From Deltaproteobacteria bacterium (GTDB lineage Bacteria; Myxococcota; Kuafuiibacteriia; Kuafuiibacteriales; Kuafuiibacteriaceae): a stretch of DNA of 64,000 nucleotides. Numbering within the stretch: the first letter of the stretch is position 1; each line of letters opens with the position of its first letter. The stretch spans positions 512,294 through 576,293 of the forward strand of contig JADJPE010000005.1 of NCBI GenBank assembly GCA_016713425.1. Reading direction: 5' to 3'. Below, in pieces: positions 1,137 to 64,000 of this stretch. A program made the position numbers and the translations under genes. Under the pieces are notes generated by a model. The model saw only the letters and a list, made by a program, of their open reading frames with translations, was not told the origin of the DNA and ran no database searches.

Positions 1137-2062
1137 GGGGCGGGCGATTTGTCCGAGCTGCGGTGCACGACGGATGCAGGAGACGGCGGCCCATCTCGTC
1201 GATGACGTGCTGCCCGATGTCGCGCTGCGGCAATACGTGCTGAGCCCGCCGTTCGAACTGCGCGGTCTTCTCGCGTGCAAACGAGAAGTCTTGGCGAAGA
1301 TGGTGAACTTTTTCGTTGGGGCGATCTTTGAGCAACTGAACTTCGCATGACCGATGATGGCCGAGTTCGGCTGACGCTTCGTCGTCCAGCGAAGAACGGC
1401 CAGGGTGCGATCGTTCTATCACCGGTTCAGTTTCTGAGGCGCCTCGCGTGGCTCGTTCCTCCCCCGGCGCAGCATCAGGTTCGCTATGCGGGAGTTCTGG
1501 CCTCGGCCTCGAAAGTGCGGCGCGCGATTGTCCCAAGGCCCGCACCGGTTCTTCAGCTCGCCTTCCCGATCGAGAACATGAGGCCTCGGGTTCAGAAACA
1601 TCGCATGTCGTGGGCCAAACTGTTGGCCCGCGTCTATTCGATTGATGGAGAGCGCTGCTTGAGCTGTGGCGGCCCACTTAGGCCGATCGGTGCGGTGACT
1701 GAATCGAGTCACGTCGCGCAGACTCTCGGTCGGATGCGACGGCAGCGATGCGCTCGAGATCCCCCTCAGCTCGCCCTCGATCTCGATCGACTCTACAAAC
1801 CAACCCAAGGTCCCACGCTCCGGGCCTCGGCGCTTCTTGTCCGCGCGGTCGCACTGCTCGTCCGCTGGGGGAGAGGTACGTCTGAACGCTGCGCGCAGGC
1901 TACGGAACTCAACGGCAGTCCCGTCTTGTGGCGTTCCAAACCGGCCAGACTGCGCGCAACATGTGACTCGTCGCACACCTGCGTCGGTTCTCCGACTGCT
2001 CCGGGCATGGTATCGACGACGCATAGTGAGTCGAAGCCGATTGATTGCCCTATCGGCCAGCC
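1137..2062 (+). pseudogene. IS91/ISCR-family (Y2 rolling-circle transposase) element, copy 1: 5'-truncated by IS110 and internally deleted
   Basis: By eye, 1137..1339 matches 6354..6556 and 1340..2011 matches 7040..7710. The roughly 0.48 kb between these in copy 2 is missing, with the junction at a shared short microhomology. A 20-nt insertion follows, and 2032..2059 then matches 7711..7720 plus 11590..11607. ORF 1347..2099 holds the C-terminal IS91-type segment (GRVRLTLRRPAKNG...SIDGERCLSCGG). Confidence 0.8.
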
Positions 2063-2065
2063 TGA

Positions 2066-49627: not shown

Positions 49628-52570
49628 TCAAAGCTTGAGCGCCAGCGATCCGAGCACCCGAGCCCCGAGACGCTGCCCGTACGGATGCTGACGGTGTTCG
49701 TTGTTCGTAACGTTATAGCCCGTCACGGCCACCTCGGCTTGGTCCTCCAAGAACGAGTACGAAACGCGCGCATTGGCCAGGTAGTACGCTGGCACTTCCC
49801 GCGTCTCGGCCGAACCGTCTGCCGTGAGCTCCGTCCAAAGCTGCCGACTCGCGAAGTGCACGTCGGCGGACAAGGCAAGACCCATGTCGAACCGATAGCG
49901 CGCACCCAAGTTCAGCTTGTGAACGCTCGTGCGCTCATCGAACTTGTACTCGCTCACCTGGCCCGCACCGGTCATGATCTTCTCCAGCGCATAGTTTGCG
50001 TACACGTCGAGACCTTGGATCGGATAGATTCGAGTCGAAAGCTCGGTTCCCAGGGCATGATAGGCAGTGTCCTGATTGCGGTAGGGCGCGAATCCTTGCG
50101 AAAACACGCCGAGAAACGGGTCGAACTCCGCCGTCGCACCGGAGGCGATATCGGCGACCGTTGGGTTCTCGGAAGGATCGGGACTCGGAATCGGCGCGAG
50201 GTCGGTCACGTGATTGTAATATCCGACAACCTCGAAATCGAAGGAACTCGAGGCGAAATTCGCATAGGAAAGCTCCACCGACAGGATCGACTCTGGGTTG
50301 AGGTTATTGCCCCCAAGCTCGGCCCCTTGCGTCGTTCCGGTTACCGCCGGCGTTGCGCCCGGGATTTCAAGATTCGCACCCACGTTCACGTAGCTCTCGA
50401 GAAAGCTCGGCGTTCGGAACGCCGACCCGGCCGCAAGGCGCACGGCAGACTCCGCGGAGGGACGGTAGATCAGCGCGCCGCGGGGCGAGATCGGCGGCTT
50501 CGACAAAAGTGGGTGGAAATCGGCCCGGATGCTTCCCTGAAAGCTCAGCGCGCCCGTGAGACGCAAGTTATCCTGCATAAACACCGCAAAATGGTCTTCG
50601 GCGTGGTCGCGGTCGAGATAGTTCCATCCGACCTGCTTCCTGCGATACGCACCGCCAATTTGGAAGTTGTGGGGAACCAGGAAATCGAATCGCTTCGAGA
50701 AGATGCCCTCGACGTCGAGCGTGTTCGTCGTTGCATCGAAAAGGTACGGGTTCTCTCCGAGACGTACATACTGAGGTCCGCCGCTGGCATCGAAATGATG
50801 GTAGAAGACGCGAAGAAGGCCGTGCTTCGAGTCGAGCTGCGCCGACGCAAAGGCGTTGAGATTGAGATCCATCCCGAAGTCACGAAGACCGCTCGTCGCC
50901 TGCCACTCAACCCGTCCGTGGGACGCGCCACCTCGTACAACCAGGCCGAGCTCAGGGGCCAAACGATAGGCAAGCGCACTGTTCGCGCGAACGACCCGCC
51001 ATGATTGGTCCTGTGCCTTGAAATTACGTGCGATATCGACGCGCTGATCCGAGACTTCCTGGGAGAATCGAAGCGCGTTGTCGAGGCCCGCCGCGAAACG
51101 GTATGCAAGCCGTCCTGCCTGTCCGCTCGTCGAGGCATGCTCGTGAAGCCACTCGTGACTTCCGGCGCTCGCGAAGACCTCGACACCTGGGTCCTCGCCA
51201 GGTCGTCGAGTGATGATGTTGACGACGCCTGAGAAAGCATCGGCACCATAGAGCGCCGACGCCGGACCGCGGATGATCTCGATCCGCTCGATATCCTCAG
51301 GACCTATGGTCAAGCTATGCCAAAATGTTGTGCCGAGCATGTCCGTGTACACGGATCGTCCATCGACGAGCACAAGAAGTCGGTTCGAGAGACGCTGATT
51401 GAATCCACGAAGACTCACGTTGAGATCCGAAGGCGAAGCCGTCATCACGTCCGCGCCTGGGACGCGACGAAGCAACTCCGGAATGCTCGACAGCCCACTG
51501 GAACGGATCTCTTCTCGCGTAATGATATGGGTCGCGCTCGGCGCATCGAGGGGCGACTGCACGTAGCGCGACGCCGACACGAGCTGGGCGTCGTACACGT
51601 TGTCCTCGAGCGTAGGTCCGGCGTTGGCAACAGTGGAAGTTCCCGCACCACTCGCCGCCTGCTGCGGGCGCTCGACTTGGGTCGCGGCCGCCATCCCCGA
51701 GGGTGGAGGCGACGCTCCGATCGATCCTTCTCGTGAACCCTCTCGTGAATCCTCTCGTGAACCCTCTAAAGCCTTCGAAGCGCTCGTAGCGCCATCCTCA
51801 TCCTCACGGCCCTGCCCGACGGGTCGAGCGCCGGATCGAGCGCCGGATCGAACGCCAATCCGGGCGCCATTCCCAACCTCGGCTGGCGCGTTATCATCCA
51901 ATCTCGGCGCTCGTTTCCCCCTCGCGTCTTCCGCCTCCGCTTCACGCGCGCGCGCCAACCGGGCCTGCTCAAGACGCTGGATGTCGAGCTCCAGCTTCGA
52001 GAGATCGCGCGCTGCACTGCGGAGAGATGCGCTGTCCGTGGTCCTCGCCAACGACTCGAGCAAAACACGCGACCTTCCGATTGGGCTCAAGTCGATCATC
52101 GAAAGCGGAAGCAAGTTCGACGCCCCACCCGGCGCGGAACCGTTTGGCGAAGTTCCGTCCGAAGCCGCATCGAGGACATCGACGGGCGCGATCAGCGAAG
52201 GGAGCTTCTCGCGAAGAGATGCAACCAACGCCTCCACGCGTTCCGCGTCCTCGGGCGAGCTGGCCAGATACTGCTGGAAGTAGTCGATGGCCTCGCTCAC
52301 CATGCCTTGCTCTGCGTAGAGCTGCGCGATGTTGAACAAGACGTTCGCGTGCGGGAGCGCAGCTTGCGCCTGCTTGAGCTCGTCGATCGCCTGAAGTGGT
52401 TGGCCGACATCGACCAGTCTCATCGCTTCCCTGAAGTGTCGCCGAGCTTCCGTCCGACGGTCGGCTCTCGCCTCGGGCGGACCGAGCACGACGAATGCCC
52501 CTACAATCAGCAGCCAAGCAGCGACCAAAGGAAGCGGAGCGAGCTTGAACGCACGATATCGTCGCGACAC
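49628..52570 (-). CDS. TonB-dependent receptor with an N-terminal TPR-like extension
   Basis: Plug region (ITREEIRSSGLSSIPELLRRVPGADV, IERIEIIRGPASALYGADAFSGVVNIITR) and a long beta-barrel. These are preceded by about 300 aa of TPR-like helices plus low-complexity sequence. Confidence 0.85.
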   Translation of the reverse strand: MSRRYRAFKLAPLPLVAAWLLIVGAFVVLGPPEARADRRTEARRHFREAMRLVDVGQPLQAIDELKQAQAALPHANVLFNIAQLYAEQGMVSEAIDYFQQYLASSPEDAERVEALVASLREKLPSLIAPVDVLDAASDGTSPNGSAPGGASNLLPLSMIDLSPIGRSRVLLESLARTTDSASLRSAARDLSKLELDIQRLEQARLARAREAEAEDARGKRAPRLDDNAPAEVGNGARIGVRSGARSGARPVGQGREDEDGATSASKALEGSREDSREGSREGSIGASPPPSGMAAATQVERPQQAASGAGTSTVANAGPTLEDNVYDAQLVSASRYVQSPLDAPSATHIITREEIRSSGLSSIPELLRRVPGADVMTASPSDLNVSLRGFNQRLSNRLLVLVDGRSVYTDMLGTTFWHSLTIGPEDIERIEIIRGPASALYGADAFSGVVNIITRRPGEDPGVEVFASAGSHEWLHEHASTSGQAGRLAYRFAAGLDNALRFSQEVSDQRVDIARNFKAQDQSWRVVRANSALAYRLAPELGLVVRGGASHGRVEWQATSGLRDFGMDLNLNAFASAQLDSKHGLLRVFYHHFDASGGPQYVRLGENPYLFDATTNTLDVEGIFSKRFDFLVPHNFQIGGAYRRKQVGWNYLDRDHAEDHFAVFMQDNLRLTGALSFQGSIRADFHPLLSKPPISPRGALIYRPSAESAVRLAAGSAFRTPSFLESYVNVGANLEIPGATPAVTGTTQGAELGGNNLNPESILSVELSYANFASSSFDFEVVGYYNHVTDLAPIPSPDPSENPTVADIASGATAEFDPFLGVFSQGFAPYRNQDTAYHALGTELSTRIYPIQGLDVYANYALEKIMTGAGQVSEYKFDERTSVHKLNLGARYRFDMGLALSADVHFASRQLWTELTADGSAETREVPAYYLANARVSYSFLEDQAEVAVTGYNVTNNEHRQHPYGQRLGARVLGSLALKL

Positions 52571-53556: not shown

Positions 53557-55800
53557 GTGGGAGCGTCGCACAGCCTAGACCAGACCGTCGGGATACGAAA
53601 CCGAAGGCGCCCAAGGAGGCGAAACCTCGCGATCGCCATCTCGGCGACATTCTCAGCTTCTCGGCTCTTGCTCCCCGAAGGCGATGCCACGGCCGCCGAG
53701 CGCCCGACACCAGAGAACCCGGCCCTCGCGCTCCTGAAGCAAGAGACCAACGCAACGACGGAAGCCTTGTCGAGGACGCAGGCTGCCCTGAATGGGGGCA
53801 AGTTCGAATACGCTCTCAATAGCCTACCGGCCATTGAGGCGCCCGGATCCGGTGCCGGGGACAGTGACCTGCTCTCGCCGTATGTTGGCTACCTGAAGGC
53901 TGAAGCCCTGACGGGGCTGGGACGACACGACGAGGCCCTCGCCCTCCTCACACCTTCACTCGCCGCGAAGGGCTGCCGGGACGGCTGGGAGGATCCGGTG
54001 TACGCGCTCCGCGAAGCCCTGCGCGCAGAACTAACGGCCAAGAAGGATCCGAAGGAGGCGGCCACCATCCTTCGGGCGCTGCTTCCGACCGCACCGCGCC
54101 TTCTACAAGCGATCGACTGGTTGAAGAAGGCTCGAGCAAACGATGAGGCAAGACAGGTCGAAGTTCTTCTCCTGACCTCGCTCCCCGAAACCAAGGAGGC
54201 AAAGAAGGTCGCCGAGCAACTCGGAGAAGGGGCCCTGAAGCAAGCGCTCGGAACGGAAGCCCAGCGTCTCGCGCGCATTCGAGCACTCTTGGCGGCCCAC
54301 GAGAACGAACGAGCCAACCAGGAAGCCAACCAGCTCCTCGAAGAGACGAAAGCGCGACCCACCGTGTGCGAGCTCCAGTACATCAGCGGCAAGGCGCTCA
54401 GGAAGCTCCGCCAATACACAGCATCAATCAAAGCACTCAAGAAGGCGCGCGTCGTCTGCGCGTCCGTCTCGCCAGACATCCAGGCCCGCGCCACTCTGCT
54501 TGAGATCAATGTTCGCGCGATTCGCGGACAAGAAAGGCCCATCGAGCAGCTGATCGCGGCGTTCACGAAGCAGCAACCTCGCCACTCGTACCTCGACGAC
54601 GCCCTTGTCTTCCTCGCCGAAGTGAAGGCAGCCCGCGGCAAGCACGCTCAAGCCGAGACGATCTACCGCCAAGTCCTCAATGAATATCCCTTCGGTGACC
54701 AGGCTTTGATGGCCGCGTGGCGACTCGCGTTCGCCGCAATCAAGAAGAACGATCCGGGCACGGCCCGCCCGTTCCTCGAGAAGATCGCGAAGAGCGACGC
54801 CGCGCCCACAATGGAGGGCTCGCGCGCTCGCTATTGGCTCGCCCGACTGCTCGAAAAGGAGGCGCCCGAGGTCTCTGCATCTTATTTCCGCGAAACGGTC
54901 CTCGATCTCTCCTTCTATAGCTGGCTCGCACTCGCACACACCGCAAGGAAGCGCCCGGACCTTTCCAAGTCGCTCCAGCGCGAGCTCCTCGAGCGCCTCG
55001 ACCCGAAGGGAGCACTCCACATCGAACTTCCCTCCGCCATCGTGCGCTCAAACGCGGAACGGCTTGGATTCAAGCTGTTTGCCGCGGGACGACCCGACAT
55101 CGCAGAGGCGGCCATGCGGCAGCTTGATTGCCCAGGTTTGTCGCCGAAAGAAGCGCTCGCGCTCGCGTTCTCGCTCGACGCGATCGATGCGCATGCATCG
55201 GCGCAAGCCATCCTGCGCGCCCGTTCATCGACGATGCTCAAGAGCATCTCGCCCGAAACGCTTCCGGTCTGGTACGCCGCCTACTCGCGCCCCTACTTCC
55301 CTTTGGTCGAGAAGGCAGCCAAGGCCGAAGAGATCGAGCCTCTCCTCTTTCTTGCCCTCGTGCGTGAAGAAAGTACGTTCGATCCGGAGATCGTAAGCTG
55401 GGCGGGAGCGGTCGGCCTCGGACAACTCATGCCCGCGACGGCCGTCGGCGCCTTTAGCTCCGTCTTCCGAGGTCGCCTGGACCCGAGCCGTCTAACCGAC
55501 CCTGAGCTCAACCTCCGCCTCGGCGCACGCGTTCTGGCCGATGGACTTAGGACCTTTGAGGGCGTGGAGGCACTCGGGCTCGGTGCCTACAACGCGGGTG
55601 CCTCCGCCGTGCGTCGTTGGCTCGGACCCAAGCCTGTACGCTTCGAACGATGGGTCGAAGAGGTCTCAGTCAAACAGACTCGACGATACATCAAGCGCGT
55701 CACCGAAACATGGGGCATCTATCGGCTGCTTTACGACAAGGACGAGCCATTCATAGCGCTTCCGGCGGTCATCCCGGCCAGCGGCAAAGGGAAGCGCTGA
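53557..55800 (+). CDS. Soluble lytic murein transglycosylase (Slt70-like)
   Basis: C-terminal SLT domain (LVREESTFDPEIVSWAGAVGLGQLMP, AYNAGASAVRRW) after a long superhelical repeat region. Confidence 0.85.
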   Translation: MGASHSLDQTVGIRNRRRPRRRNLAIAISATFSASRLLLPEGDATAAERPTPENPALALLKQETNATTEALSRTQAALNGGKFEYALNSLPAIEAPGSGAGDSDLLSPYVGYLKAEALTGLGRHDEALALLTPSLAAKGCRDGWEDPVYALREALRAELTAKKDPKEAATILRALLPTAPRLLQAIDWLKKARANDEARQVEVLLLTSLPETKEAKKVAEQLGEGALKQALGTEAQRLARIRALLAAHENERANQEANQLLEETKARPTVCELQYISGKALRKLRQYTASIKALKKARVVCASVSPDIQARATLLEINVRAIRGQERPIEQLIAAFTKQQPRHSYLDDALVFLAEVKAARGKHAQAETIYRQVLNEYPFGDQALMAAWRLAFAAIKKNDPGTARPFLEKIAKSDAAPTMEGSRARYWLARLLEKEAPEVSASYFRETVLDLSFYSWLALAHTARKRPDLSKSLQRELLERLDPKGALHIELPSAIVRSNAERLGFKLFAAGRPDIAEAAMRQLDCPGLSPKEALALAFSLDAIDAHASAQAILRARSSTMLKSISPETLPVWYAAYSRPYFPLVEKAAKAEEIEPLLFLALVREESTFDPEIVSWAGAVGLGQLMPATAVGAFSSVFRGRLDPSRLTDPELNLRLGARVLADGLRTFEGVEALGLGAYNAGASAVRRWLGPKPVRFERWVEEVSVKQTRRYIKRVTETWGIYRLLYDKDEPFIALPAVIPASGKGKR

Positions 55801-55826: not shown

Positions 55827-55978
55827 CTCGTTCCAAAGATCATGGAGAGAGACACCGATGTCGATGGCGTCGAGGATGGTCTCGAGCGGGACTCGGCCGG
55901 TGGCGTCGTTGTACCGGTAAGGATTGTTGAGGCCGTAGGCGAAGCGGTTGAATCCATCGGGCTTTGTAGCATCGACCT
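55827..55978 (-). pseudogene. Vestigial third mini-Rhs cassette (152-nt piece of the RHS-core region)
   Basis: Matches 57582..57733 and 60298..60449 with a few mismatches. It encodes ...KPDGFNRFAYGLNNPYRYNDATGRVP.ETILDAIDIGVSLHDLWNE and abuts the slt stop codon. Confidence 0.8.
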
Positions 55979-56546
55979 GACTCCGGCGCGTGCTCCTGCG
56001 AACGCGCCGTGCGTCGGAGCCGGGTCACCGGCCCTCCGCTACACCGGTACCTATCGAGGAGAGACGAGGATCTCCCACGTTACAGGGTCGTCTTCTTCGT
56101 GCGTGCCATATTCGAACACCCCGCCGGATACGCCGTCCCCTCGACCCGCGTTGCCTGGTCGCGACTGGCTACTCCTGACCCGGAAATGCCGCCGTCATCT
56201 CTCCGCCGACCGCACCTCCCGCTGCAGGCGAGCCCACTCGTCCCCAGTCCTTCACTTCTCCGTGCTGCAAGTGGTGCGTTGGGGCTTTGGGCAGCCCCCT
56301 CCCGACGCTTGTCCTCGCGCTTCCTGCGATGGGAAGTAAAGTATCGCCGCCGCCGTCGAGGCCGATCATCGCGAAACACATCCCCGACCGAGGGCGCGAT
56401 GAGTTCATGCTCGCGCAGACCCATGCCGAGGGCAGCACGTGGTCTCTGAGACCAGCTCGATGCTCGCCGGTGACCTTGAGCAGGGTCCTCTGCTCGCGTT
56501 CGTTCAAGGCCCGTGGGGTGCGTGCCTCGTCGGCGTAGTTCGCCAT
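55979..56546 (-). pseudogene. Tyrosine recombinase remnant (diverged, frameshifted, 3'-truncated)
   Basis: It starts [38 protein letters not shown], then continues in another frame ([26 protein letters not shown]). It is a paralog of 58177..58788. Confidence 0.65.
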
Positions 56547-56591
56547 CGTCTGGGATGAAGGCGTGCCCCACGGCATATGGCAGGGTTGGAG

Positions 56592-57194
56592 TCAGCGCTT
56601 GCGCTTCTTGAGGCGGCGAAGGATGACCTGGATCTCCTTCTTCAGCTCGGGGTCGGTGCCGAGCTCCATCAGAGCTGCCCGCGTACGCGGGTCTTCAGAG
56701 CGCCCAAGAGCACTGAGCAGCAAGATGCGGCTCGGGCCATGCCGCTCGTCACGCACAAGCCCGAGCATCTCATCGATGACCTCATCGTCGGCGACAACCG
56801 AGATGGCAACGGCGAGTCCGTCCTTGGCGTCCCGCTCGCCTTCGTTTCGGTAGAGTCGGGTCAGCACGTCCCACGCGAACTTCGACTCCGGGACGGCCAA
56901 TGCCCGGGCGATGCCTTCGCGCACACGGCTTGGGTAGGAGCGTTGCAGATGGTCCACCAAGATGGGCAGGGCATCGGGGTACGGCGCGGACGTGTTCACG
57001 AGGTCCCAGGCCGAATCGACCTCGAAGCCCGCAGCCCTGAGTTCCTCGACCAATGGAGCCTCTGCACGTTGCCATTCGGCTGCACGTGCCTGTCGTTCGG
57101 CCTCTTCCCGCGCCCGCTTCGCGACAAACTCCGGGTCGGAGTTCAGCCTGGCCATCAACTCCGCTGCGCTCACAGGCTTCTTCTTGTTGCTCAT
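56592..57194 (-). CDS. Putative immunity protein (HEAT/ARM-like repeats) for the REase-type toxin
   Basis: 200-aa helical-repeat protein whose ATG overlaps the toxin stop (ATGA at 57191..57194). Confidence 0.65.
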   Translation of the reverse strand: MSNKKKPVSAAELMARLNSDPEFVAKRAREEAERQARAAEWQRAEAPLVEELRAAGFEVDSAWDLVNTSAPYPDALPILVDHLQRSYPSRVREGIARALAVPESKFAWDVLTRLYRNEGERDAKDGLAVAISVVADDEVIDEMLGLVRDERHGPSRILLLSALGRSEDPRTRAALMELGTDPELKKEIQVILRRLKKRKR

Positions 57195-58177
57195 GGGATG
57201 AACCTCAAGTTGATGGTTCCCTGCGGAACTGCTTCTTGGAGAGCCCCGCTGAGCGTCGTATTTGGGCGCACGTACAGATCGAACCTGCGCCCCCTCTGTT
57301 GGGCAAAGTCTGCGAAGTCGCGGAGCTGCCGCGAGAAGCTCAGCGATTTGACGTTCTTGACCTCACTCAGGACCGTGTTCGTCAACCCGTCCGGGATTCG
57401 ATTGCGACCGTTGACGAGGATCTTGGCGTTGTCGCCGATATTGTAGGCGGCCGGCACGGCACTCTCACCGGCCTGGCCGACGCGGACTACCTGAGCACCT
57501 CCCCTTGCGGCGTCTGCGGCCCGATCGCCTGCGCGGACGGCGCCGATCGACCAAGCCAGGAAGAGCCCGTTCGACCAGGACGGCTCGTTCCAAAGATCAT
57601 GGAGAGAGACACCGATGTCGATGGCGTCGAGGATGGTCTCGACCGGGACTCGGCCGGTGGCGTCGTTGTAGCGGTAAGGATTGTTGAGGCCGTAGGCGAA
57701 GCGGTTGAATCCATCGGGCTTTGTAACATCGACCTCGAGAAGCGAAGCCGGGTCCTGGCTGAGGAAGCGACCGTACCTCGGGTCGTAGAAGCGCTCGCCC
57801 AGCTCATAGAGTCCAGTGGGCTCGAGCGGGCGGTCGAGGAACTTCGAATGCCCGCTCGCCGACGCCGAACCGTCGACGTCACCGAACGGACGCGGCGAGT
57901 CGCGCCAGACGACCTGACCGTCGCGGTTCGTGACGGCGAGGATCGCGCCGTGCGCATCGTGGTGAAAGAACCGAACGTCTTCCGTTGATTGCTGGGCGAA
58001 GGCGGAGGACGTCGCGGCCGGAATGACCGCCGTCCACGACAGCAACAGCGCGAGACTCGACGCAAGGAATCGGCTTGCTTCGCCCTTCAAGCTCTTCGCA
58101 CTTCGCATGGCTTTCAGATCGCTCACGCCTTTCAGAACTCTAGGTTCCTTCGGAACCCGCAGTGTGTCTTGGCTCAT
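57191..58177 (-). CDS. Mini-Rhs toxin 2: signal-like N-terminus + RHS-core region + restriction-endonuclease-fold C-terminal toxin
   Basis: FLASSLALLLSWTAVIPAATSSAFA, then FYDPRYGRFLSQDP...NRFAYGLNNPYRYNDATG. The C-terminus is NGRNRIPDGLTNTVLSEVKNVKSLSFSRQLRDFADFAQQRGRRFDLYVRP (Tox-REase-like D...E.K pattern). An alternative start is ATG 58108. Confidence 0.75.
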   Translation of the reverse strand: MSQDTLRVPKEPRVLKGVSDLKAMRSAKSLKGEASRFLASSLALLLSWTAVIPAATSSAFAQQSTEDVRFFHHDAHGAILAVTNRDGQVVWRDSPRPFGDVDGSASASGHSKFLDRPLEPTGLYELGERFYDPRYGRFLSQDPASLLEVDVTKPDGFNRFAYGLNNPYRYNDATGRVPVETILDAIDIGVSLHDLWNEPSWSNGLFLAWSIGAVRAGDRAADAARGGAQVVRVGQAGESAVPAAYNIGDNAKILVNGRNRIPDGLTNTVLSEVKNVKSLSFSRQLRDFADFAQQRGRRFDLYVRPNTTLSGALQEAVPQGTINLRFIP

Positions 58178-58195
58178 TACCTTGCTTTGCCTCGG
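57536..58195 (-). repeat. Constant region of the mini-Rhs cassettes (copy A)
   Basis: Near-identical by eye to 60253..60910. It runs from about 20 nt upstream of the first ATG to the WSIGAV codons. Confidence 0.85.
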
Positions 58196-58788
58196 CAGTC
58201 TCGTCTCATCACGCTGCGCTGCGCTGCGTAGACCATGGGTCGTCACGAGACTTCGATGCCGGGCAAAGCGCTGCGTGAGGCGGATGTTCTTGGTGAGCGC
58301 GTAGAGGTTTGTCACCGCCGAGGGGCGAAAACATATGGAAGGTCACGCGGCGCTCGAATCCGGCCCCGTCCTGCCACACGGTGACGCCGTGGCGGACCTG
58401 CCGCAGCGACAGGCGACGGCCCAGGCGGCTGACGAAGAGCGGGCCTTCATCGTCGAGGCATTCGCACTCGCGGGCCTTCCACTGGTGGAATCGGCGGAGC
58501 TTGCCGCGCAGGGACTCGCTGACCAGGACCTCCTGCGTACCGCCCGTTCGCTGTGCCCCTTTGAACACGCTCAGCAGCAGCCTGCGTCTGGGCCGACCGT
58601 CCCGAAACGCATCCCCGACCGAGAGCCCTGATGAGCTCGTGCTCGCGCAGGCCCGTGCCGAGGGCCGTGGCGTACAGCACATGATCGCGACAGCCCGCTC
58701 GGTGCTCGCCGGTGACCTTGAGCAGGGCTCTCTGCTCGCGTTCGGTCAAGGTCCGTGGGGTGCGTGTCGAGTCGGCGTAGTTCGCCAT
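58177..58788 (-). pseudogene. Catalytic-domain-only tyrosine recombinase, split over three or more frames
   Basis: The pieces read [53 protein letters not shown], then [22 protein letters not shown]...LSLRQVRHGVTVWQDGAGFERRVTFHMF, then VTNLYALTKNIRLTQRFARHRSLVTT. The Arg / H-x-x-R / Tyr-region order fits the integrase family. A TAA in the last frame overlaps the toxin ATG (TAATG, 58175..58179). Confidence 0.7.
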
Positions 58789-58864
58789 CCTTGGGCATGA
58801 GGAAGGCGTGCGCCGTTGCCGAATGCAAGCCGATGTGCCAAGGACGACGCTCTGTTATCGTCAG

Positions 58865-59464
58865 ATGATGGAGGCGCACGGAAATCCGAAGCTCAGCAAG
58901 TTCATGAGCTTCGTTCTTCGGCACAGGCCCGACGCCATCGGATTGGCGCTCGATCAACAGGGATGGGCGTCGATCGACGAGCTGGTCCTCAAGAGCAATG
59001 CCGCCGGCCACAGCTTCAGTCGCGACGACTTGATCCACGTGGTCAACACCAGCGAGAAGCGGCGCTTCACGCTTTCAGCCGATGGCCACAGAATTCGCGC
59101 CGCACAGGGGCACTCCGTCACCATCGACCTCGGCTTGTCGAAGCAGGAGCCTCCCACAGACCTCTATCACGGGACTGCGCGGCGCTTTCTGCGGTCGATT
59201 CTGTCAGATGGGCTGAGTCCGCAGGCCCGCCAACAGGTTCACCTCTCGGTCGATGCAGCCACCGCGAAGATCGTCGGCCAGCGCCACGGCGATCCAGTTG
59301 TCCTCACGGTGGATGCACATCGCATGCATGCTGCCGGCTTCCAGTTCTACGTCGCCGACAACGGCGTATGGCTGGCCGATCACGTGCCAGCTGAGTTCAT
59401 GGGCGTATCGTCCAGCGACGCGGATTCCGCTACAACCTCTAGGCATCCAAAGCCATCGAGGTAG
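58865..59464 (+). CDS. kptA: RNA 2'-phosphotransferase (Tpt1/KptA family)
   Basis: KLSKFMSFVLRHRPDAIGLALDQQGWASIDELV, FTLSADGHRIRAAQGHS, LYHGTARRFLRSILSDGL, VHLS and VVLTVDA are the conserved Tpt1 blocks. Its 3' tail overlaps the convergent immunity ORF by about 85 nt. Confidence 0.85.
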   Translation: MMEAHGNPKLSKFMSFVLRHRPDAIGLALDQQGWASIDELVLKSNAAGHSFSRDDLIHVVNTSEKRRFTLSADGHRIRAAQGHSVTIDLGLSKQEPPTDLYHGTARRFLRSILSDGLSPQARQQVHLSVDAATAKIVGQRHGDPVVLTVDAHRMHAAGFQFYVADNGVWLADHVPAEFMGVSSSDADSATTSRHPKPSR

Positions 59465-59778
59465 ACGATGAAGTGGCGCATCGTCCAGTGATCACGCCAT
59501 TCAGGAACCGCATCCTTGCGCAGCTCTTCAACCCACTCCGAAGGCTTGACCTCGCAGACTGTGTCGTAGGCGTCCTTGACGTGCCATGAGGTGCAGTACG
59601 TTTCCTCCCGCTTGCGAAACGCTCGCGGCTTGTTGAAGAGCAGGCCCACCTGCCGCTCGCGACCATCATCATCGCACACCAAGGAAACAAGAAGTCCTCG
59701 GTCTGCGTCGACCAGTGTCGGACCGCGCATTGCGGCAGTGGAAGGGCATGGCAGCATCAAGAGCGGTAGCTTTTCCAT
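59380..59778 (-). CDS. Putative immunity protein for mini-Rhs toxin 1
   Basis: 132 aa starting at ATG 59778, which shares one base with the toxin stop (TGATG). No motif recognised. Confidence 0.6.
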   Translation of the reverse strand: MEKLPLLMLPCPSTAAMRGPTLVDADRGLLVSLVCDDDGRERQVGLLFNKPRAFRKREETYCTSWHVKDAYDTVCEVKPSEWVEELRKDAVPEWRDHWTMRHFIVYLDGFGCLEVVAESASLDDTPMNSAGT

Positions 59779-60896
59779 CACATCCCCCCCGAGCGCCGTA
59801 CGGTCGCTGCGCCCGCACTGGTCAGCCCATTGCGCTGCAGCTGGCCTGTGAGCATGTTCTCGAACACCTCCTGGCCTGTTCGATTGACCGCGTTCCACGC
59901 CGACCGCGGAATACCGGCCGCCTCGAGGGCCTGTGCAGAGCGAGTGTTCAGGATGAGCGTATTGCCGTCGCGCACGATGTAGTTGATGGGCACTTCGGAT
60001 GGACTCATGGCACCCGCGCGAAGAGCCGCCGCTACGTCATCGACGCTTCTGCCAGCAAATGCCCCGCCTCGGCTGAACATGGACCCGAACGTCTTCTGCG
60101 CGAAGTTTGCGCCTTCGAGCGCAGTCCCCCTTGCGGCATCTGCGACGTGGTCGCCTACGCGGACGGCGTCGGTAACATCGCTTGCGGTGTCGACGTGCTT
60201 TCCGGCTTTGGCGACGCGTCGCACCCAGGCGCCTGGAATATAGGGAAGGAGGACGGCGCCGATCGACCAAGCCAGGAAGAGCCCGTTCGACCAGGACGGC
60301 TCGTTCCAGAGATCATGGAGAGAGACACCGATGTCGATGGCGTCGAGGATGGTCTCGACCGGGACTCGGCCGGTGGCGTCGTTGTAGCGGTAAGGATTGT
60401 TGAGGCCGTAGGCGAAGCGGTTGAATCCATCGGGCTTTGTAACATCGACCTCGAGAAGCGAAGCCGGGTCTTGGCTGAGGAAGCGACCGTACCTCGGGTC
60501 GTAGAAGCGCTCGCCCAGCTCATAGAGTCCAGTGGGCTCGAGCGGGCGGTCGAGGAACTTCGAATGCCCGCTCGCCGACGCCGAACCGTCGACGTCACCG
60601 AACGGACGCGGCGAGTCGCGCCAGACGACCTGACCGTCGCGGTTCGTGACGGCGAGGATCGCGCCGTGCGCATCGTGGTGAAAGAACCGAACGTCTTCCG
60701 TTGATTGCTGGGCGAAGGCGGAGGACGTCGCGGCCGGAATGACCGCCGTCCACGACAGCAAGAGCGCGAGGCTCGACGCAAGGAATCGTCTTGCTTCGCC
60801 CTTCAAGCTCTTCGCACTTCGCATGGCTTTCAGATCGCTCACGCCTTTCAGAACTCTAGGATCCTTCGGAACCCGCACTGTGTCTTGCCTCATCAC
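59778..60896 (-). CDS. Mini-Rhs toxin 1: signal-like N-terminus + RHS-core region + unclassified C-terminal toxin domain
   Basis: The N-terminal ~220 aa are almost identical to toxin 2. After WSIGAV it diverges into ...GANFAQKTFGSMFSRGGAFAGRSVDDVAAALRAGAMSPSEVPINYIVRDGNTLILNTRSAQALEAAGIPRSAWNAVNRTG... An alternative start is ATG 60824. Confidence 0.75.
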   Translation of the reverse strand: MMRQDTVRVPKDPRVLKGVSDLKAMRSAKSLKGEARRFLASSLALLLSWTAVIPAATSSAFAQQSTEDVRFFHHDAHGAILAVTNRDGQVVWRDSPRPFGDVDGSASASGHSKFLDRPLEPTGLYELGERFYDPRYGRFLSQDPASLLEVDVTKPDGFNRFAYGLNNPYRYNDATGRVPVETILDAIDIGVSLHDLWNEPSWSNGLFLAWSIGAVLLPYIPGAWVRRVAKAGKHVDTASDVTDAVRVGDHVADAARGTALEGANFAQKTFGSMFSRGGAFAGRSVDDVAAALRAGAMSPSEVPINYIVRDGNTLILNTRSAQALEAAGIPRSAWNAVNRTGQEVFENMLTGQLQRNGLTSAGAATVRRSGGM

Positions 60897-60910
60897 GTTG
60901 CTTTGCCTCG
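60253..60910 (-). repeat. Constant region of the mini-Rhs cassettes (copy B)
   Basis: Near-identical by eye to 57536..58195. Confidence 0.85.
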
Positions 60911-60957
60911 TTGTGTTGCGCTGCGTCGCGTCTTGTCTTGCCGAGTCCGCTGATCCG

Positions 60958-63900
60958 CTACTCGTTGAGCCATATCTGAAGCGCCACGTGATCCTGTTCT
61001 CCCTGAATGTAGCCTGAGGCGATCAGGTCGAGGTCGCCATCCCCGTCGATGTCGGCCAACGACGCATCGCTCGGAAGATCCGCTTGTACCTCGACCCAGG
61101 ATCCGCGCGAAGGACTCGGTTCGTTGAGTCGGTTCTCAAAGACAAACGATCCGACCACCGCGTCGAGGTCTCCGTCGCCATCCAAATCCCCGAGACTCGC
61201 GATACCGGCACGAACCGGTATGTTCCCTTGCATCAGTGTCCCTTCCCCAGACGGATTGCGGGCCTGATTCACAAGGACGCCGAGGTATGTGTGTGAACCA
61301 CGCGTCTCTGGGAAGACGAAGTCAAGGAGTCCGTCACCGTTGACGTCGCCGCTTTCGGCCCCCGGCGATAGTGGGCTGGAGGCGCGCGCCGCGACGAAGG
61401 CAAAAGGTTCGTCGTTACGCAGCCACTCGCGTCGACCGCCTCCCCACACATCCAAGTCGCCATCGCGATCCCAGTCGGCCAAGAGAACCGTTTCCCCGAA
61501 CGTCGACTCCGCGAGTCTAAGGATGTGGCCGAGATGGCCTCGGCCGTCCTCGTTCACCATCCCGTAGACCCCATCACTAAACGACCATACCGCATCGAGG
61601 TCGCCGTCTTGGTCGAGATCGCCCAGCGTCCAATCCGTCATGCCTCGGCCGCCGTTCGGTGGAAGCGCGACGCTCGAACCGGAGGGTGTGAAGTGGCCGG
61701 ATCCGTCGTTGGTGAGGACCATGGGTCCAGTATCGCGTCTCCAGATGAGTGCGTCGAGATCACCATCCATGTCAAGGTCTCCGAGCCGAGCGAACGCCCC
61801 GCATGGCCGGGCGACCGGCTCGAGAACGCTCTCAAAGACCGCGTCGATCGGCGGCTCAGGGGGCGGGCCAGAGTCCGAGCCGGATGCCGGGTGGGAGGCA
61901 ACCTGGAAGCCGCCTTCGTTCCGCCAGACTCGAACGTCGCACTGCACGGCGCCCAACATTAAGATGTCGACGTCGCCATCGCCATCGAGATCGCCGAGCA
62001 CCCTCTTGCCTCTCGATATGCGCCACGAACGCCGTGCCCTGGCGAAGCCGCGAACGTTAGCGGTACCACCAACCCCACTGGCGCTGCCAGAACCACCGGC
62101 ACCGCTAAGACCACTGGCGCCATCGGCGGCCGCTCGGAACTCGAAGACTTGGGGTGTGATCGACGCACCGTCCTCGGCGTATCGGATTCCAGACGTCAGG
62201 CTCACGCTGACGCGCTCACCGGCCTTCATCAAATACGTTGGTCGAAAGTGCGCCTCGCGACCCACGACCGAATAGTCTCCTTCGAGTCGACCGGTGAGCG
62301 CACCGTGCACGACGAAGGTGTCTGAATTCACGGACGTCGGATCGAGGTGCGCTCCGAATCGATGCACGATCTCGCCATCACGCGGGAACGCGTTCGTGTT
62401 TCGGATGCCTGCATCGAGCGTCGCGCGGACGCCGACTTGATAGGCACGTGTGCCCAGGCAAAGATGAAACGCCGTTGACCACGCGCCCGGCGCACCGCCT
62501 CGAAGCGACACCGGAACCTCGATCGACCCGTTCGCGGGGATCGTGACGGGGAAGGTTGCATCGACCGTCACCCCGAGCACGTTGCCTGGCGAAGTAGCCA
62601 ACGTGACGGCATCGGATGAACGGTTAGATATCCGAAGGACGCGCGTGTTCTCGATCCCAACCTCCACGGCGCCGAGATCGATCACGGACGGCTCGATGTG
62701 CACCGGGTCGAGGTTGATCTCCGCGATCCTTCGACCCATCGCGACAACGTATTCCTTCAGCATCATGCCCGACTCGGTGCTTTCGGCGATCCGCTGGCCG
62801 TATTGGTCGTAGTGGTAAAGGATGGTCTCTTCGCCGCCGCACGGCGTGCTCGCCGTCGTGCGCCCGCGGCGCCCAAGGCCGTCGTAGGCATAGTCATATG
62901 TATTCGCGCGACGCGGGCTCACCGCATCGGAGGCCTGGGTCAGTCGTCCCTCGCGGTCGTATCGGAAGGTCCGCCCGACCTGCATCCATTGAGGTTGTCC
63001 GAGGTCGCCGACTCTCGTCTCCGAGATTGCGGCGCCGCCTTCCGTATAGCTGATCAACTCACCGGTGCCTCCTCCTGCTCCTGCTCCGACTCCGCCGACA
63101 CCGCTCCGAATGCTTGAGAGCATGCCACCGGGGCGCGTGTACTCATACGTCGTCTCGGCACCGTTCGTTCGCATGAATGTCCGGTCGCCCGCCTTGTTGT
63201 ACCCGTACTCGAGGAGACCCCAGGGCCCCTCGGCGCGTTCGAGGCGATCGCGCGCATCGTACGTGAATCGCTTCGAGTTGCTTGGCGTGAGCGTGTCGTC
63301 CACGCGCTCGAGGTTGCCGACCGCGTCGTGTTCGTAGTCGAGCGATGCGATCTCGCCGGACCCGATCGCACTCGACCACACGGAGAGGCGATCAGGCCGA
63401 CGTCGTTCGTCGAGCGTCAAGACGCTTTCGGCGCCATTCGCATAAACGATGCGGCGTGGCTGACCGAGCGCATGGTACTCGACGAGGTCGAGGTATCCAT
63501 CGACGCCCACGAGCCGATTGGCGCTGTCATATCGAGACCGCACGATGCGCCCCGAAGGATACGTGACTTCGATCGGGTTGCCTCGGTCGTCGTATCGATA
63601 TCGGGTCACGTACTCGACGCCACCCGTCGTCAGCGTCTCCGTCTCTATGCGGCCCGAAGGGGTGTACGTGAAGGCACGTTCCCCAACGCGGTCCGCCATC
63701 GAGACCATCTGATCGGCCAGCGCATCGTACGCGTATGTGGCATGGACCCCCTCGGAACCGTGATCGACGGCCGTTCTTCGGCCCATGGCGTCGAGCGCGT
63801 AGGTCGCCACGAAGGGTCGACTTCGTTCGGGCGTTGCGTCGGTGCACAAGCCTCGGGCATCGCGACATCGAAGCCTCCCCAAGCCATCGTACCCGAACCC

Positions 63901-63999
63901 GCGACGACCCGTTTCCGGTGATGTTTCCGAGGCGACTTGTTTCTGTGCGTTGTAGCGAATCTGACGCGTGCGGCCGCCCACTCGGATCGTCTCGAGCAG
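60958..63999 (-). CDS. Large YD/Rhs-repeat protein ending in Ig-like and seven FG-GAP/VCBS repeats (5' partial, open to the window end)
   Basis: YD repeats (YDGLGRL, RYRYDDRGNPIEVTYPSGR, FTYDARDRLERA, FRYDREGRL, YDYAYDGLGRR, YHYDQYGQRIAE) are followed by Ig-like segments. Then come GDLDGDGDVD, GDLDMDGDLD, GDLDQDGDLD, ADWDRDGDLD, GDVNGDGLLD, GDLDGDGDLD and ADIDGDGDLD. There is no stop between 63981 and the window edge. Confidence 0.85.
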   Translation of the reverse strand: MLETIRVGGRTRQIRYNAQKQVASETSPETGRRGFGYDGLGRLRCRDARGLCTDATPERSRPFVATYALDAMGRRTAVDHGSEGVHATYAYDALADQMVSMADRVGERAFTYTPSGRIETETLTTGGVEYVTRYRYDDRGNPIEVTYPSGRIVRSRYDSANRLVGVDGYLDLVEYHALGQPRRIVYANGAESVLTLDERRRPDRLSVWSSAIGSGEIASLDYEHDAVGNLERVDDTLTPSNSKRFTYDARDRLERAEGPWGLLEYGYNKAGDRTFMRTNGAETTYEYTRPGGMLSSIRSGVGGVGAGAGGGTGELISYTEGGAAISETRVGDLGQPQWMQVGRTFRYDREGRLTQASDAVSPRRANTYDYAYDGLGRRGRTTASTPCGGEETILYHYDQYGQRIAESTESGMMLKEYVVAMGRRIAEINLDPVHIEPSVIDLGAVEVGIENTRVLRISNRSSDAVTLATSPGNVLGVTVDATFPVTIPANGSIEVPVSLRGGAPGAWSTAFHLCLGTRAYQVGVRATLDAGIRNTNAFPRDGEIVHRFGAHLDPTSVNSDTFVVHGALTGRLEGDYSVVGREAHFRPTYLMKAGERVSVSLTSGIRYAEDGASITPQVFEFRAAADGASGLSGAGGSGSASGVGGTANVRGFARARRSWRISRGKRVLGDLDGDGDVDILMLGAVQCDVRVWRNEGGFQVASHPASGSDSGPPPEPPIDAVFESVLEPVARPCGAFARLGDLDMDGDLDALIWRRDTGPMVLTNDGSGHFTPSGSSVALPPNGGRGMTDWTLGDLDQDGDLDAVWSFSDGVYGMVNEDGRGHLGHILRLAESTFGETVLLADWDRDGDLDVWGGGRREWLRNDEPFAFVAARASSPLSPGAESGDVNGDGLLDFVFPETRGSHTYLGVLVNQARNPSGEGTLMQGNIPVRAGIASLGDLDGDGDLDAVVGSFVFENRLNEPSPSRGSWVEVQADLPSDASLADIDGDGDLDLIASGYIQGEQDHVALQIWLNE

Positions 64000-64000
64000 T

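Follow-up and report, generated by a model that had tools for sequence, protein, structure and literature searches.

The swapping of tips in polymorphic toxins is usually credited to homologous recombination with orphan cassettes, and orphan rhs-CT/rhsI arrays are known downstream of the main rhs gene, for example in Salmonella (PMC3967940). Aux3, a type VI secretion system (T6SS) module of Vibrio cholerae, is an effector/immunity module on a prophage-like element with an integrase and attachment (att) sites, which has been truncated and 'grounded' in pandemic strains (PMC7721734). In Bacteroidales, rAID consists of a single recombinase heading an array of at least two co-oriented orphan immunity genes without toxins (PMC12247911). 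Gamma-Mobile-Trio elements (10.1101/2023.03.28.534373) and Mycobacterium prophages (PMC8092301) are reported to have antibacterial toxins and defence genes among their cargo. Here, we analyse a locus of a Myxococcota genome in which small Rhs toxins, immunity genes and remnants of tyrosine recombinase genes form a tandem array. It occupies positions 55,827 to 60,957 of a 64,000-nucleotide (nt) stretch of contig JADJPE010000005.1. This whole stretch is called the window below; all coordinates refer to it, and the array is read on the minus strand.

We will argue that three complete, Sec-exported mini-Rhs genes form a tandem array in this region, that the array has decayed, and that its cassettes are tagged with a recombinase and mobile; to this reading we assign a probability of about 0.5. 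The comparisons show a common plan of the units: a constant region ending in the residues AARG, a variable tip, an immunity gene (with kptA in unit 1), and a small recombinase gene with a promoter-like leader. According to the proposed mechanism, the moving units would be modules that carry a recombinase, perhaps as circles, of which the 5.3-kb metagenome locus L092 may be an example, and the recombinase would join or excise them site-specifically at a short core that overlaps its own −35 box. Homologous recombination through the constant region would then expand and homogenise the arrays, and the recombinase would decay after a unit has become fixed. The components of the array are the following (ORF, open reading frame; aa, amino acids).

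60251 to 60910, minus strand: constant-region copy 1, 660 nt, beginning 14 nt upstream of the GTG of toxin 1
59778 to 60896, minus strand: mini-Rhs toxin 1, an ORF with signal peptide, RHS-associated core (TIGR03696), linker, AARG and C-terminal domain CT1
60127 to 60137, minus strand: AARG junction 1, GCCGCAAGGGG, left breakpoint of cassette 1, the 11-mer at which homology to locus L105 starts
59380 to 59778, minus strand: immunity-like ORF 1, 132 aa, overlapping the toxin 1 stop (TGATG), no Pfam family
58808 to 59464, plus strand: kptA/Tpt1 RNA 2'-phosphotransferase gene (PF01885, 1.1e-48; NF002014, 2.7e-74), probable ATG near 58868
58238 to 58829, minus strand: tyrosine recombinase pseudogene 1 with promoter-like leader (CTTGCA at ~58829, ATG at 58788)
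57535 to 58194, minus strand: constant-region copy 2, identical to copy 1 at 650 of 660 positions
57191 to 58177, minus strand: mini-Rhs toxin 2, with constant copy 2, AARG and a Tox-REase-7 C-terminus (PF15649, 1.4e-18)
57501 to 57511, minus strand: AARG junction 2, GCCGCAAGGGG, left breakpoint of cassette 2, the 11-mer at which homology to locus L113 starts
56592 to 57194, minus strand: immunity ORF 2 with HEAT_2 repeats (PF13646, 4.8e-07), ATGA overlap with toxin 2
56346 to 56590, minus strand: tyrosine recombinase pseudogene 2, promoter-like leader (CCTGCCA) and codons 1 to ~68, with a 10-nt deletion
55980 to 56345, minus strand: 366 unassigned nt between recombinase remnant 2 and the vestige
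55827 to 55978, minus strand: vestige, with the codons VDVTKPDGF...LWNE of a third constant region, cut short at either end

The array starts at the end of a YD-repeat/FG-GAP gene, which is followed by toxin 1, immunity 1, recombinase remnant 1, toxin 2, immunity 2 and recombinase remnant 2. Its tail is made up of the 366 nt, which show no similarity to any fetched locus or to the remaining window, the 152-nt vestige of the third copy, and then the slt gene. The two constant copies (60910-60251 and 58194-57535) have 10 mismatches in 660 nt (98.5% identity), and 8 of these fall within the first ~150 nt; such a 5' clustering is the pattern that would be expected of recent gene conversion. The vestige, which corresponds to copy-1 positions 60451-60300, is identical to copies 1 and 2 at 148-149 of its 152 positions (97-98%) and ends 27 nt from the slt stop (55800). 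This repeat structure is far beyond chance.

The argument for mobility comes from the same cassettes on other scaffolds. For the closest subclade of the recombinase family (N-terminus MANYAD..., 79-93% identity), 27 metagenome loci were fetched, which are given as L numbers where they have to be told apart. L105 is a canonical Rhs gene, with YD repeats and a DPxGL core, that carries CT1 (89% aa identity), immunity 1 (95%), kptA (96%) and an intact recombinase, and it is 94% identical in nucleotides to window positions 58386-60137. The same CT1-immunity 1-kptA block is found with a full-length recombinase in L095. The second cassette recurs in L113, where C-terminus CT2, immunity 2 and a recombinase remnant are 87% identical to 56373-57511 and stand behind a different N-terminal sequence.

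Further members show the same exchange of parts. One Imm1 immunity gene with its recombinase stands behind two different Rhs cores in L096 and L097/L098; the MafB19-type deaminase tip is intact in the latter two, and the Rhs ORF of L096 ends 12 codons past AARG, so that hardly anything of its tip is left. A third tip, CT3, is followed by a CPCC immunity gene and the recombinase on the canonical Rhs of L114, and occurs with CPCC immunity but without a recombinase on the mini-Rhs of L090. The array of L111 has two units, which a recombinase remnant separates. In L107, L115, L117, L109, L094 and L092, the ORF directly upstream of the recombinase is SUKH-1, CdiI_2 (with an RNase A CdiA-CT), Gmx_para_CXXCG or another small immunity-like one. 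The upstream families confirmed by Pfam are Imm1 with MafB19 deaminase, CdiI_2 with RNase_A_bac, SUKH-1, DUF2019, CPCC, and HEAT_2 with Tox-REase-7; a GH-E nuclease as the end of the L001-type lipoprotein was not confirmed by Pfam.

Altogether, there are ~19 distinct upstream contexts, at least 11 with a recognisable toxin and/or immunity gene and 6 with an RHS core. Nearly all subclade copies whose upstream sequence is readable stand directly 3' of a polymorphic-toxin tip/immunity pair. Wherever a toxin is linked, the gene next to the immunity gene on its 3' side is the recombinase, and the RHS-core ORF is found upstream, essentially never downstream. The unit is thus toxin tip-immunity-recombinase, and not recombinase-toxin-immunity. 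The comparisons show that the variable part of the unit, which runs from AARG through the recombinase, is exchanged horizontally as a cassette, and that this one subclade is a constant 3' companion of toxin/immunity cassettes. The ratio of nonsynonymous to synonymous substitution rates (dN/dS) is 0.14-0.24 for intact subclade recombinases beside different cassettes, which means that the recombinase protein is under purifying selection.

We now consider the ends of the cassettes. On the left, homology in the pairs window/L105, window/L113 and L090/L114 begins exactly at GCCGCAAGG(G/A)G, which encodes AARG, and within the window the linker ahead of AARG is 28 codons shorter in toxin 2 than in toxin 1. 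The 11-mer is present at the tip junctions L089:764, L090:1404, L096:3509, L105:1400, L113:111, and L130:1979 and 4605; it is found also in L005/L093 and, with one mismatch, in L092. Across scaffolds and tips the junction always reads GC(C/G)GCAAGGGG, with the rare codons GCA and AGG. This constancy of the two codons suggests a constraint at the DNA level, possibly a recombination motif for the toxin class, in which AARG demarcates the tip and is functionally like VENN in CdiA.

On the right, an alignment of 26 recombinase 5' flanks shows that homology starts at one nucleotide, with (C)CTTGCC, 38-45 nt before the ATG. This start is constant behind about 17 unrelated sequences and is usually placed 5-30 nt from the stop codon of the immunity gene. 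For L090 and L114, the breakpoints are GCCGCAAGG on the left and CCTTGCCA on the right, and L090 retains CCTTGCCA after its CPCC immunity gene, with a HINT-type orphan module and not the recombinase coming next. The GCAAGG of the AARG 11-mer is the reverse complement of CTTGCC; an att-like repeat pair was considered on this basis, but the match has only 6 bp and is imperfect in the window cassettes, and it serves as a lead at most.

An alternative for these borders is that the recombinase with its 3' flank acts as a passive right homology arm and the Rhs core or constant region as the left one, the cassette being exchanged by a RecA-dependent double crossover in which catalysis is irrelevant. 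The recombinases beside different cassettes are 84-94% identical over 600 nt and have a conserved downstream block of ~260 nt in addition, pseudogenes are common among them, and classical Rhs and CdiA tip exchange is ascribed to homologous recombination (PMC3967940). However, the intact copies are under selection, as judged by the dN/dS values above, and the cross-scaffold homology amounts to only the 11-mer on the left and, for L090 versus L114, to only 8 nt on the right, which is too short for RecA. We consider this explanation improbable.

The metagenome locus L092 (5406 bp) has an exact terminal overlap of 119 bp, and corresponds to a 5287-bp circle or tandem unit. Besides an RHS-core fragment with AARG and a toxin tip, it carries an immunity gene, an intact recombinase gene and cargo genes; the labels of the cargo (DUF1016-like, remnant of an insertion sequence (IS), RelE-like) come from reading the translated products and not from scans. 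A bolder version of our proposal would make each cassette self-mobilising: its own recombinase would excise a circle, of which L092 would be the free form, and reinsert it at the 7-8-bp CCTTGCC core, the AARG 11-mer giving in-frame docking on Rhs, mini-Rhs and lipoprotein scaffolds. We find this version doubtful. If true, it would mean cassette-level exchange of toxin genes in Myxococcota, distinct from integrons and rAID.

The toxins of the window have 328-372 aa and lack YD repeats, which are confined to the separate upstream gene. Their RHS-associated cores match TIGR03696 over the cut-off (8.5e-14 for toxin 1, and 6.3e-14), and the match to PF03527 is weak and under the cut-off. Toxin 1, to which P0121 is 100% identical, has a Sec-type signal peptide (...SSAFA/QQ). 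Exact-sequence look-ups of toxin 2 and immunity 2 matched no record, and among species-representative genomes the mini-Rhs constant region has no close relative, the best matches being 30-35% identical and from Gammaproteobacteria. The canonical DPxGL self-cleavage motif is absent at the end of the core, where the window reads NNPYRYNDATGRVP; motifs of the canonical type are present in L105, L097 and L114. With their start codons and signal peptides, the window toxins are complete genes and not classical orphans.

Each toxin has a variable C-terminus and a putatively cognate immunity gene, and both pairs are conserved in other loci. CT1 belongs to no Pfam family. Immunity 1 always stands directly after CT1, at identities of 95% in L105/L095, 89% in L133 and 60% in L130-L132, and immunity 2 is 90% identical in L113, behind the same toxin C-terminus. 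The GC content at third codon positions (GC3) of the two tips (59778-60249 and 57191-57533, minus strand) is 0.55 and 0.48, to be compared with 0.75-0.77 for the constant region and the neighbours, and the codon-position GC pattern of the tips is reversed relative to these. Such a reversal is consistent with a foreign origin of the tips.

Both recombinases of the window are pseudogenes. Three-frame translation and alignment of recombinase 1 to intact relatives reveal three +1 frameshifts, i.e. three single-base insertions that have to be removed (frames 0>1>2>0), as well as the substitutions R141G and H155P at family-invariant columns; the intact relatives retain R48, H151, R154, H177 and Y186. 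The homology does not extend past the catalytic Tyr codon (58238); the final ~17 codons of the conserved part are lost, and ~45 unrelated nt then lead to the constant region of toxin 2. When repaired, the translation matches PF00589 with an E-value of 1.6e-17 over residues 13-189, and the XerA/XerC models at 1e-17 to 1e-18 over the catalytic half only. The protein has the size of FimB/FimE and consists of a catalytic domain only, without an N-terminal DNA-binding domain. The homology of recombinase 2 is limited to 56346-56546 (~68 codons).

Sequencing error was considered as the cause of the frameshifts and rejected in view of the substitutions at invariant residues, the replaced 3' end and the intact long ORFs of the neighbours. 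Two of the three frameshifts in recombinase 1 are within short homopolymers. Another candidate that was rejected is a truncation hotspot inside the recombinase, as the remnants in the subclade end at codons ~27, 55, 61, 68, 95, 102, 108 and 125. With its recombinases dead, the array is now frozen save for homologous exchange between the 660-nt repeats.

Much of this agrees with a description made earlier from the letters of the window alone (the original prediction). The coordinates given there for toxin 1 with its overlapping immunity ORF and for toxin 2 with its ATGA-overlapping, HEAT-like one are confirmed, as are the signal-like N-terminus with an RHS core, the near-identical constant region of ~660 nt, the 152-nt vestige of a third cassette and the YD-repeat gene stop at 60958. 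Recombinase 1 had been placed at 58177..58788; it is a catalytic-domain-only tyrosine recombinase as described, but not one ORF, and the noted overlap of its TAA with the ATG of toxin 2 is an accident of frame. From the second remnant, assigned to 55979..56546, only 56346-56546 is recognisable as recombinase. The intact kptA gene was not mentioned, the C-terminal switch was set right after WSIGAV whereas the toxins share a further segment up to AARG (GCCGCAAGGGG), and the units were called orphans, which does not fit complete genes. Shuffling by the recombinases, which had also been suggested, cannot be going on here now.

Turning to the recombinase family at large, a search of 5.8 billion proteins gave 607 homologues of ~205 aa, with a mean column identity of 69%, mostly from Myxococcota metagenome-assembled genomes (MAGs). 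A gene for the terminase large subunit (TerL) divergently adjoins the recombinase in 59 of the 82 loci with usable flanks, and in 49 of the 82 a gene resembling that of the small subunit (TerS-like) follows ~350-700 nt downstream. Portal, MuF, nuclease and primase genes are also found near family recombinases, and the family is present in viral contigs of IMG/VR; among cultured phage records there is no close homologue, the best having 29% identity. Where genomes are complete, the recombinase gene lies inside the element, adjacent to TerL, and is not a border gene. Going by this gene context, the family is native to Myxococcota prophage-like elements.

These results bring up the main rival of our reading, which is supported by the phage home of the family and by the Aux3 precedent. 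It holds that the recombinase is the border gene of a Myxococcota prophage-like element and that the toxin pairs are hotspot cargo or integration neighbours, so that a cassette would be moved by the movement of its element; the window would then contain the stumps of two elements with their interiors deleted, and there would be no site-specific recombination of cassettes. Besides the terminase, portal, MuF and primase genes and the viral contigs just described, a TerS-like gene downstream of the subclade copies L005, L093 and L099 speaks for it, as do AbiE-like genes in L006, L021 and L030 (other subclades) and Abi_C/SLFN-like genes beside the MANYAD copy in L001, these labels again coming from reading products. 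Precedents are Aux3 (PMC7721734) and the toxin cassettes reported from Mycobacterium prophages (PMC8092301).

The window itself fits this rival less well. Apart from the recombinase it holds no phage gene remnants, tblastn with TerL, TerS-like, portal, MuF and other queries giving no matches, and simple prophage decay does not predict the full constant region on each downstream toxin copy. Moreover, the immunity/recombinase junction is nucleotide-precise in about 17 contexts, L090 keeps CCTTGCCA with neither recombinase nor phage behind it, and the internal position of the recombinase in complete genomes is not that of a border gene. We regard the prophage explanation as possible, with the odds against it.

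It is important to realise how restricted the link to Rhs genes is. In a tblastn search with the window toxins, an RHS core was found near the recombinase in only one of 84 loci (1 of 80 genome loci), namely L019, a Haliangium MAG. This locus has an Rhs of 650 aa, an immunity gene, the recombinase, an IS200-like gene and then phage genes, the last of which, on the far side, again favour the prophage explanation. Its recombinase belongs to a second subclade (60% identity), and is likewise 3' of an Rhs-immunity pair. With a single Rhs-linked genome locus, the family as a whole is not Rhs-linked, which taken by itself would go against the original prediction, and the link is seen only for the closest metagenome subclade.

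Some further observations on the recombinase genes can be added. In the prophage-like elements (L003, L011, L040, L050, L061 and others; about 10001 +/- 700), the recombinase is on the opposite strand between the TerS-like gene and TerL. A short inverted repeat, e.g. CCTTCC-N8-GGAAGC, lies between the −35-like and −10-like boxes and differs among subfamilies; it may be an operator or binding site. Directly 3' of the recombinase stop, all close subclade members have a block of ~260 nt (L001 4387-4650, L005 1538-1800, L092 1518-1790), after which the sequence splits into at least two variants, and which is lost from the window copies. Finally, in L108 (~1090) and L109 (~1320), remnants truncated at different codons are joined to the identical sequence AGGTGCCACCCAA(A/T)TGTCCG, which is probably the end of an insertion sequence.

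A quite different possibility is a platform of the integron or rAID type, where the recombinase captures promoterless cassettes at an attI-like site and so builds the array that it serves. The precise insertion point beside the recombinase promoter would fit, as would the further orphan cassette after CCTTGCCA in L090; XerC/D recombinases have been noted beside polyimmunity loci by Zhang et al. 2012 (PMC3482391), and rAID pairs a tyrosine recombinase with orphan immunity arrays (PMC12247911). The arrangement is the wrong one, however: there is one recombinase per cassette and not per array, it is downstream of the cassette and co-oriented with it, and the toxin gene of each cassette is full and has a start of its own. 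In addition, matches to NCBIfam integron-integrase models are weak and partial (TIGR02249, 3.5e-5; NF011946, 0.008; residues 140-192) and far under the cut-offs, and in a repeat search the ends of the cassettes were without attC-like inverted repeats. A platform of this kind is very improbable.

The remaining proposals of the original prediction can be assessed on this basis. Its module phase, recombinase-toxin-immunity, has to be shifted, as the recombinase forms the 3' end of the cassette before it. Its link between recombinase and toxins holds for the closest subclade, nearly all of whose members with a readable upstream sequence stand 3' of toxin/immunity pairs, and whose cassettes recur in L105, L095 and L113, but not family-wide, where terminase is the usual neighbour. 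The search of relatives that it recommended does find RHS cores near the closest subclade, upstream of the recombinase and not immediately downstream as expected, and the alignment of junctions for an att-like site yields the shared (C)CTTGCC start, which is family-wide and probably a promoter −35 box. The likeness to integrons or to the recombinase islands of Bacteroidales is not borne out, with one recombinase per cassette, no integron-type integrase and no attC-like hairpins seen.

Several points weigh against the recombinase-tagged, mobile cassettes that we propose. Most members of the family (the 59 of 82 loci above) adjoin terminase and not toxins. Frameshifts or truncations, the latter at various points, affect many copies of the subclade. 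The two copies of the window are dead themselves, and the window holds neither phage genes nor att-like repeats; a repeat search gave no flanking direct repeats besides the constant region. CCTTGCC-N17-..CATG is conserved family-wide, phage contexts included, so CCTTGCC is probably the −35 box of the recombinase promoter, and the edge of a promoter could pass for a 'precise end'. Arrays without a recombinase (L130, L089 and L090) have the AARG junction as well, which makes it a property of the toxin family and not of the recombinase. Instead of a circle, L092 may represent a tandem repeat. Lastly, a small number of related sample series account for many of the metagenome loci, and their contexts are not fully independent.

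Cassette 1 contains an additional gene, kptA, which is intact. Its place is between immunity 1 and recombinase 1, and its orientation is convergent with the former. CT1, its associated tip (59781-60125, minus strand), is predicted to adopt a ParB/sulfiredoxin-like fold. The predicted structure has a mean confidence score (pLDDT) of 94.9, and the best folds in the PDB are the ParB N-domain and sulfiredoxin, with probabilities of 0.93-0.97 but weak E-values and template-modelling (TM) scores. An invariant N-T-R motif of CT1 resembles the Tox-ParBL1 family of Zhang et al. 2012 (PMC3482391).

The gene kptA is linked to CT1-type toxins also in L105, L095 and L130-L135, and a CT1-type toxin followed by a Tpt1/KptA gene is found in Myxococcota, Chryseobacterium and Listeria, that is, in three phyla. 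A small ORF lies between the toxin and kptA everywhere except in the Chryseobacterium locus, which has a 178-aa ORF after kptA. KptA may be an immunity enzyme of the repair type. This would, if true, hint at a natural substrate of bacterial Tpt1. L130 has, upstream of kptA, an inverted partial copy of the AARG junction with the first ~20 codons of CT1, at 3273-3387 (minus strand) as compared with 1979-2090 (plus strand), so that the block of toxin tip, immunity gene and kptA is flanked by inverted repeats in that locus.

The array is bordered by two larger genes:

60958 to 64000, minus strand: 3' part of a YD-repeat/Ig-like/FG-GAP gene (Pfam RHS_repeat, Big_5 and FG-GAP_3), frame open to the window end
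53557 to 55800, plus strand: slt (TPR and SLT lytic transglycosylase; PF01464, 6.4e-23), a housekeeping gene that forms the array boundary

The part of the YD-repeat gene inside the window has no RHS core and no toxin of its own. The same YD/FG-GAP gene end, followed by a mini-Rhs, is present in L090 (L090 2-544). In both the window and L090, a core-plus-toxin mini-Rhs with a signal peptide comes after a YD-repeat protein that ends in FG-GAP, and the two proteins may constitute a split Rhs system, in which the shell and the plug/toxin are secreted separately. No Rfam family is found in 52-64 kb of the window, and the only tRNA call in 45-64 kb is a doubtful one: ARAGORN reports a 96-nt tRNA-Arg(CCG) at 50359-50454 (minus strand), within the ORF of a 980-aa TonB-dependent receptor, which is probably a false positive.

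The same blocks on unrelated scaffolds, with exact breakpoints and a recombinase under selection, point to site-specific or element-borne toxin exchange. The setting is that of social, predatory soil bacteria, where such toxins define kin boundaries. Searches of the full-text literature gave no account of Myxococcota in which every Rhs tip/immunity cassette is accompanied by a small recombinase, and the tip-immunity-recombinase blocks appear to be a hitherto undescribed mobile unit. The sequences GCCGCAAGGGG and CCTTGCC, and the intact recombinases of L092 and L095, are provided for experiments.

The closest comparison is with the orphan rhs arrays, which likewise consist of tandem tip/immunity modules with a common upstream core and can be rearranged by homologous recombination. 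Unlike these, the modules in the window are complete genes of ~330-370 aa that have a Sec signal peptide and whose RHS portion is limited to the terminal core, recombinase genes lie between them, and the upstream YD gene is without core or toxin in the window. Aux3 shares with our locus the tie between a toxin/immunity pair and a tyrosine recombinase of phage origin, and the fixation of the module in the chromosome as recombination decays. It is one element, however, with defined att sites and a recombination directionality factor (RDF), whereas here each cassette has a catalytic-domain-only recombinase of ~205 aa and is fused in frame to different toxin scaffolds at AARG, and the cassettes form tandem arrays. 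Phage structural and packaging genes and att repeats like those of Aux3 are absent from the window (tblastn, repeat search), but relatives do have them.

As in the rAID and polyimmunity loci, a tyrosine recombinase is linked to interbacterial toxin-immunity genes, with conserved intergenic motifs; the cassettes of the window differ in having a toxin, an immunity gene and their own 3' recombinase, and in belonging to Myxococcota. In its size and its catalytic-domain-only content the recombinase is like FimB/FimE, and full-length matches to NCBIfam invertase models are weak and far under the cut-offs. The PilV/Rci shufflon works by a constant N-terminus joined to variable C-termini, a logic that the window toxins resemble, but unlike in shufflons all cassettes are co-oriented, and no inverted alternative segments were found. 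Gamma-Mobile-Trio elements and the toxin elements of Mycobacterium prophages reportedly carry recombinases as well. Compared with these elements, which are large and multi-gene, the minimal repeated unit here measures about 1.5-2.7 kb and is joined in frame to a toxin scaffold that is already resident.

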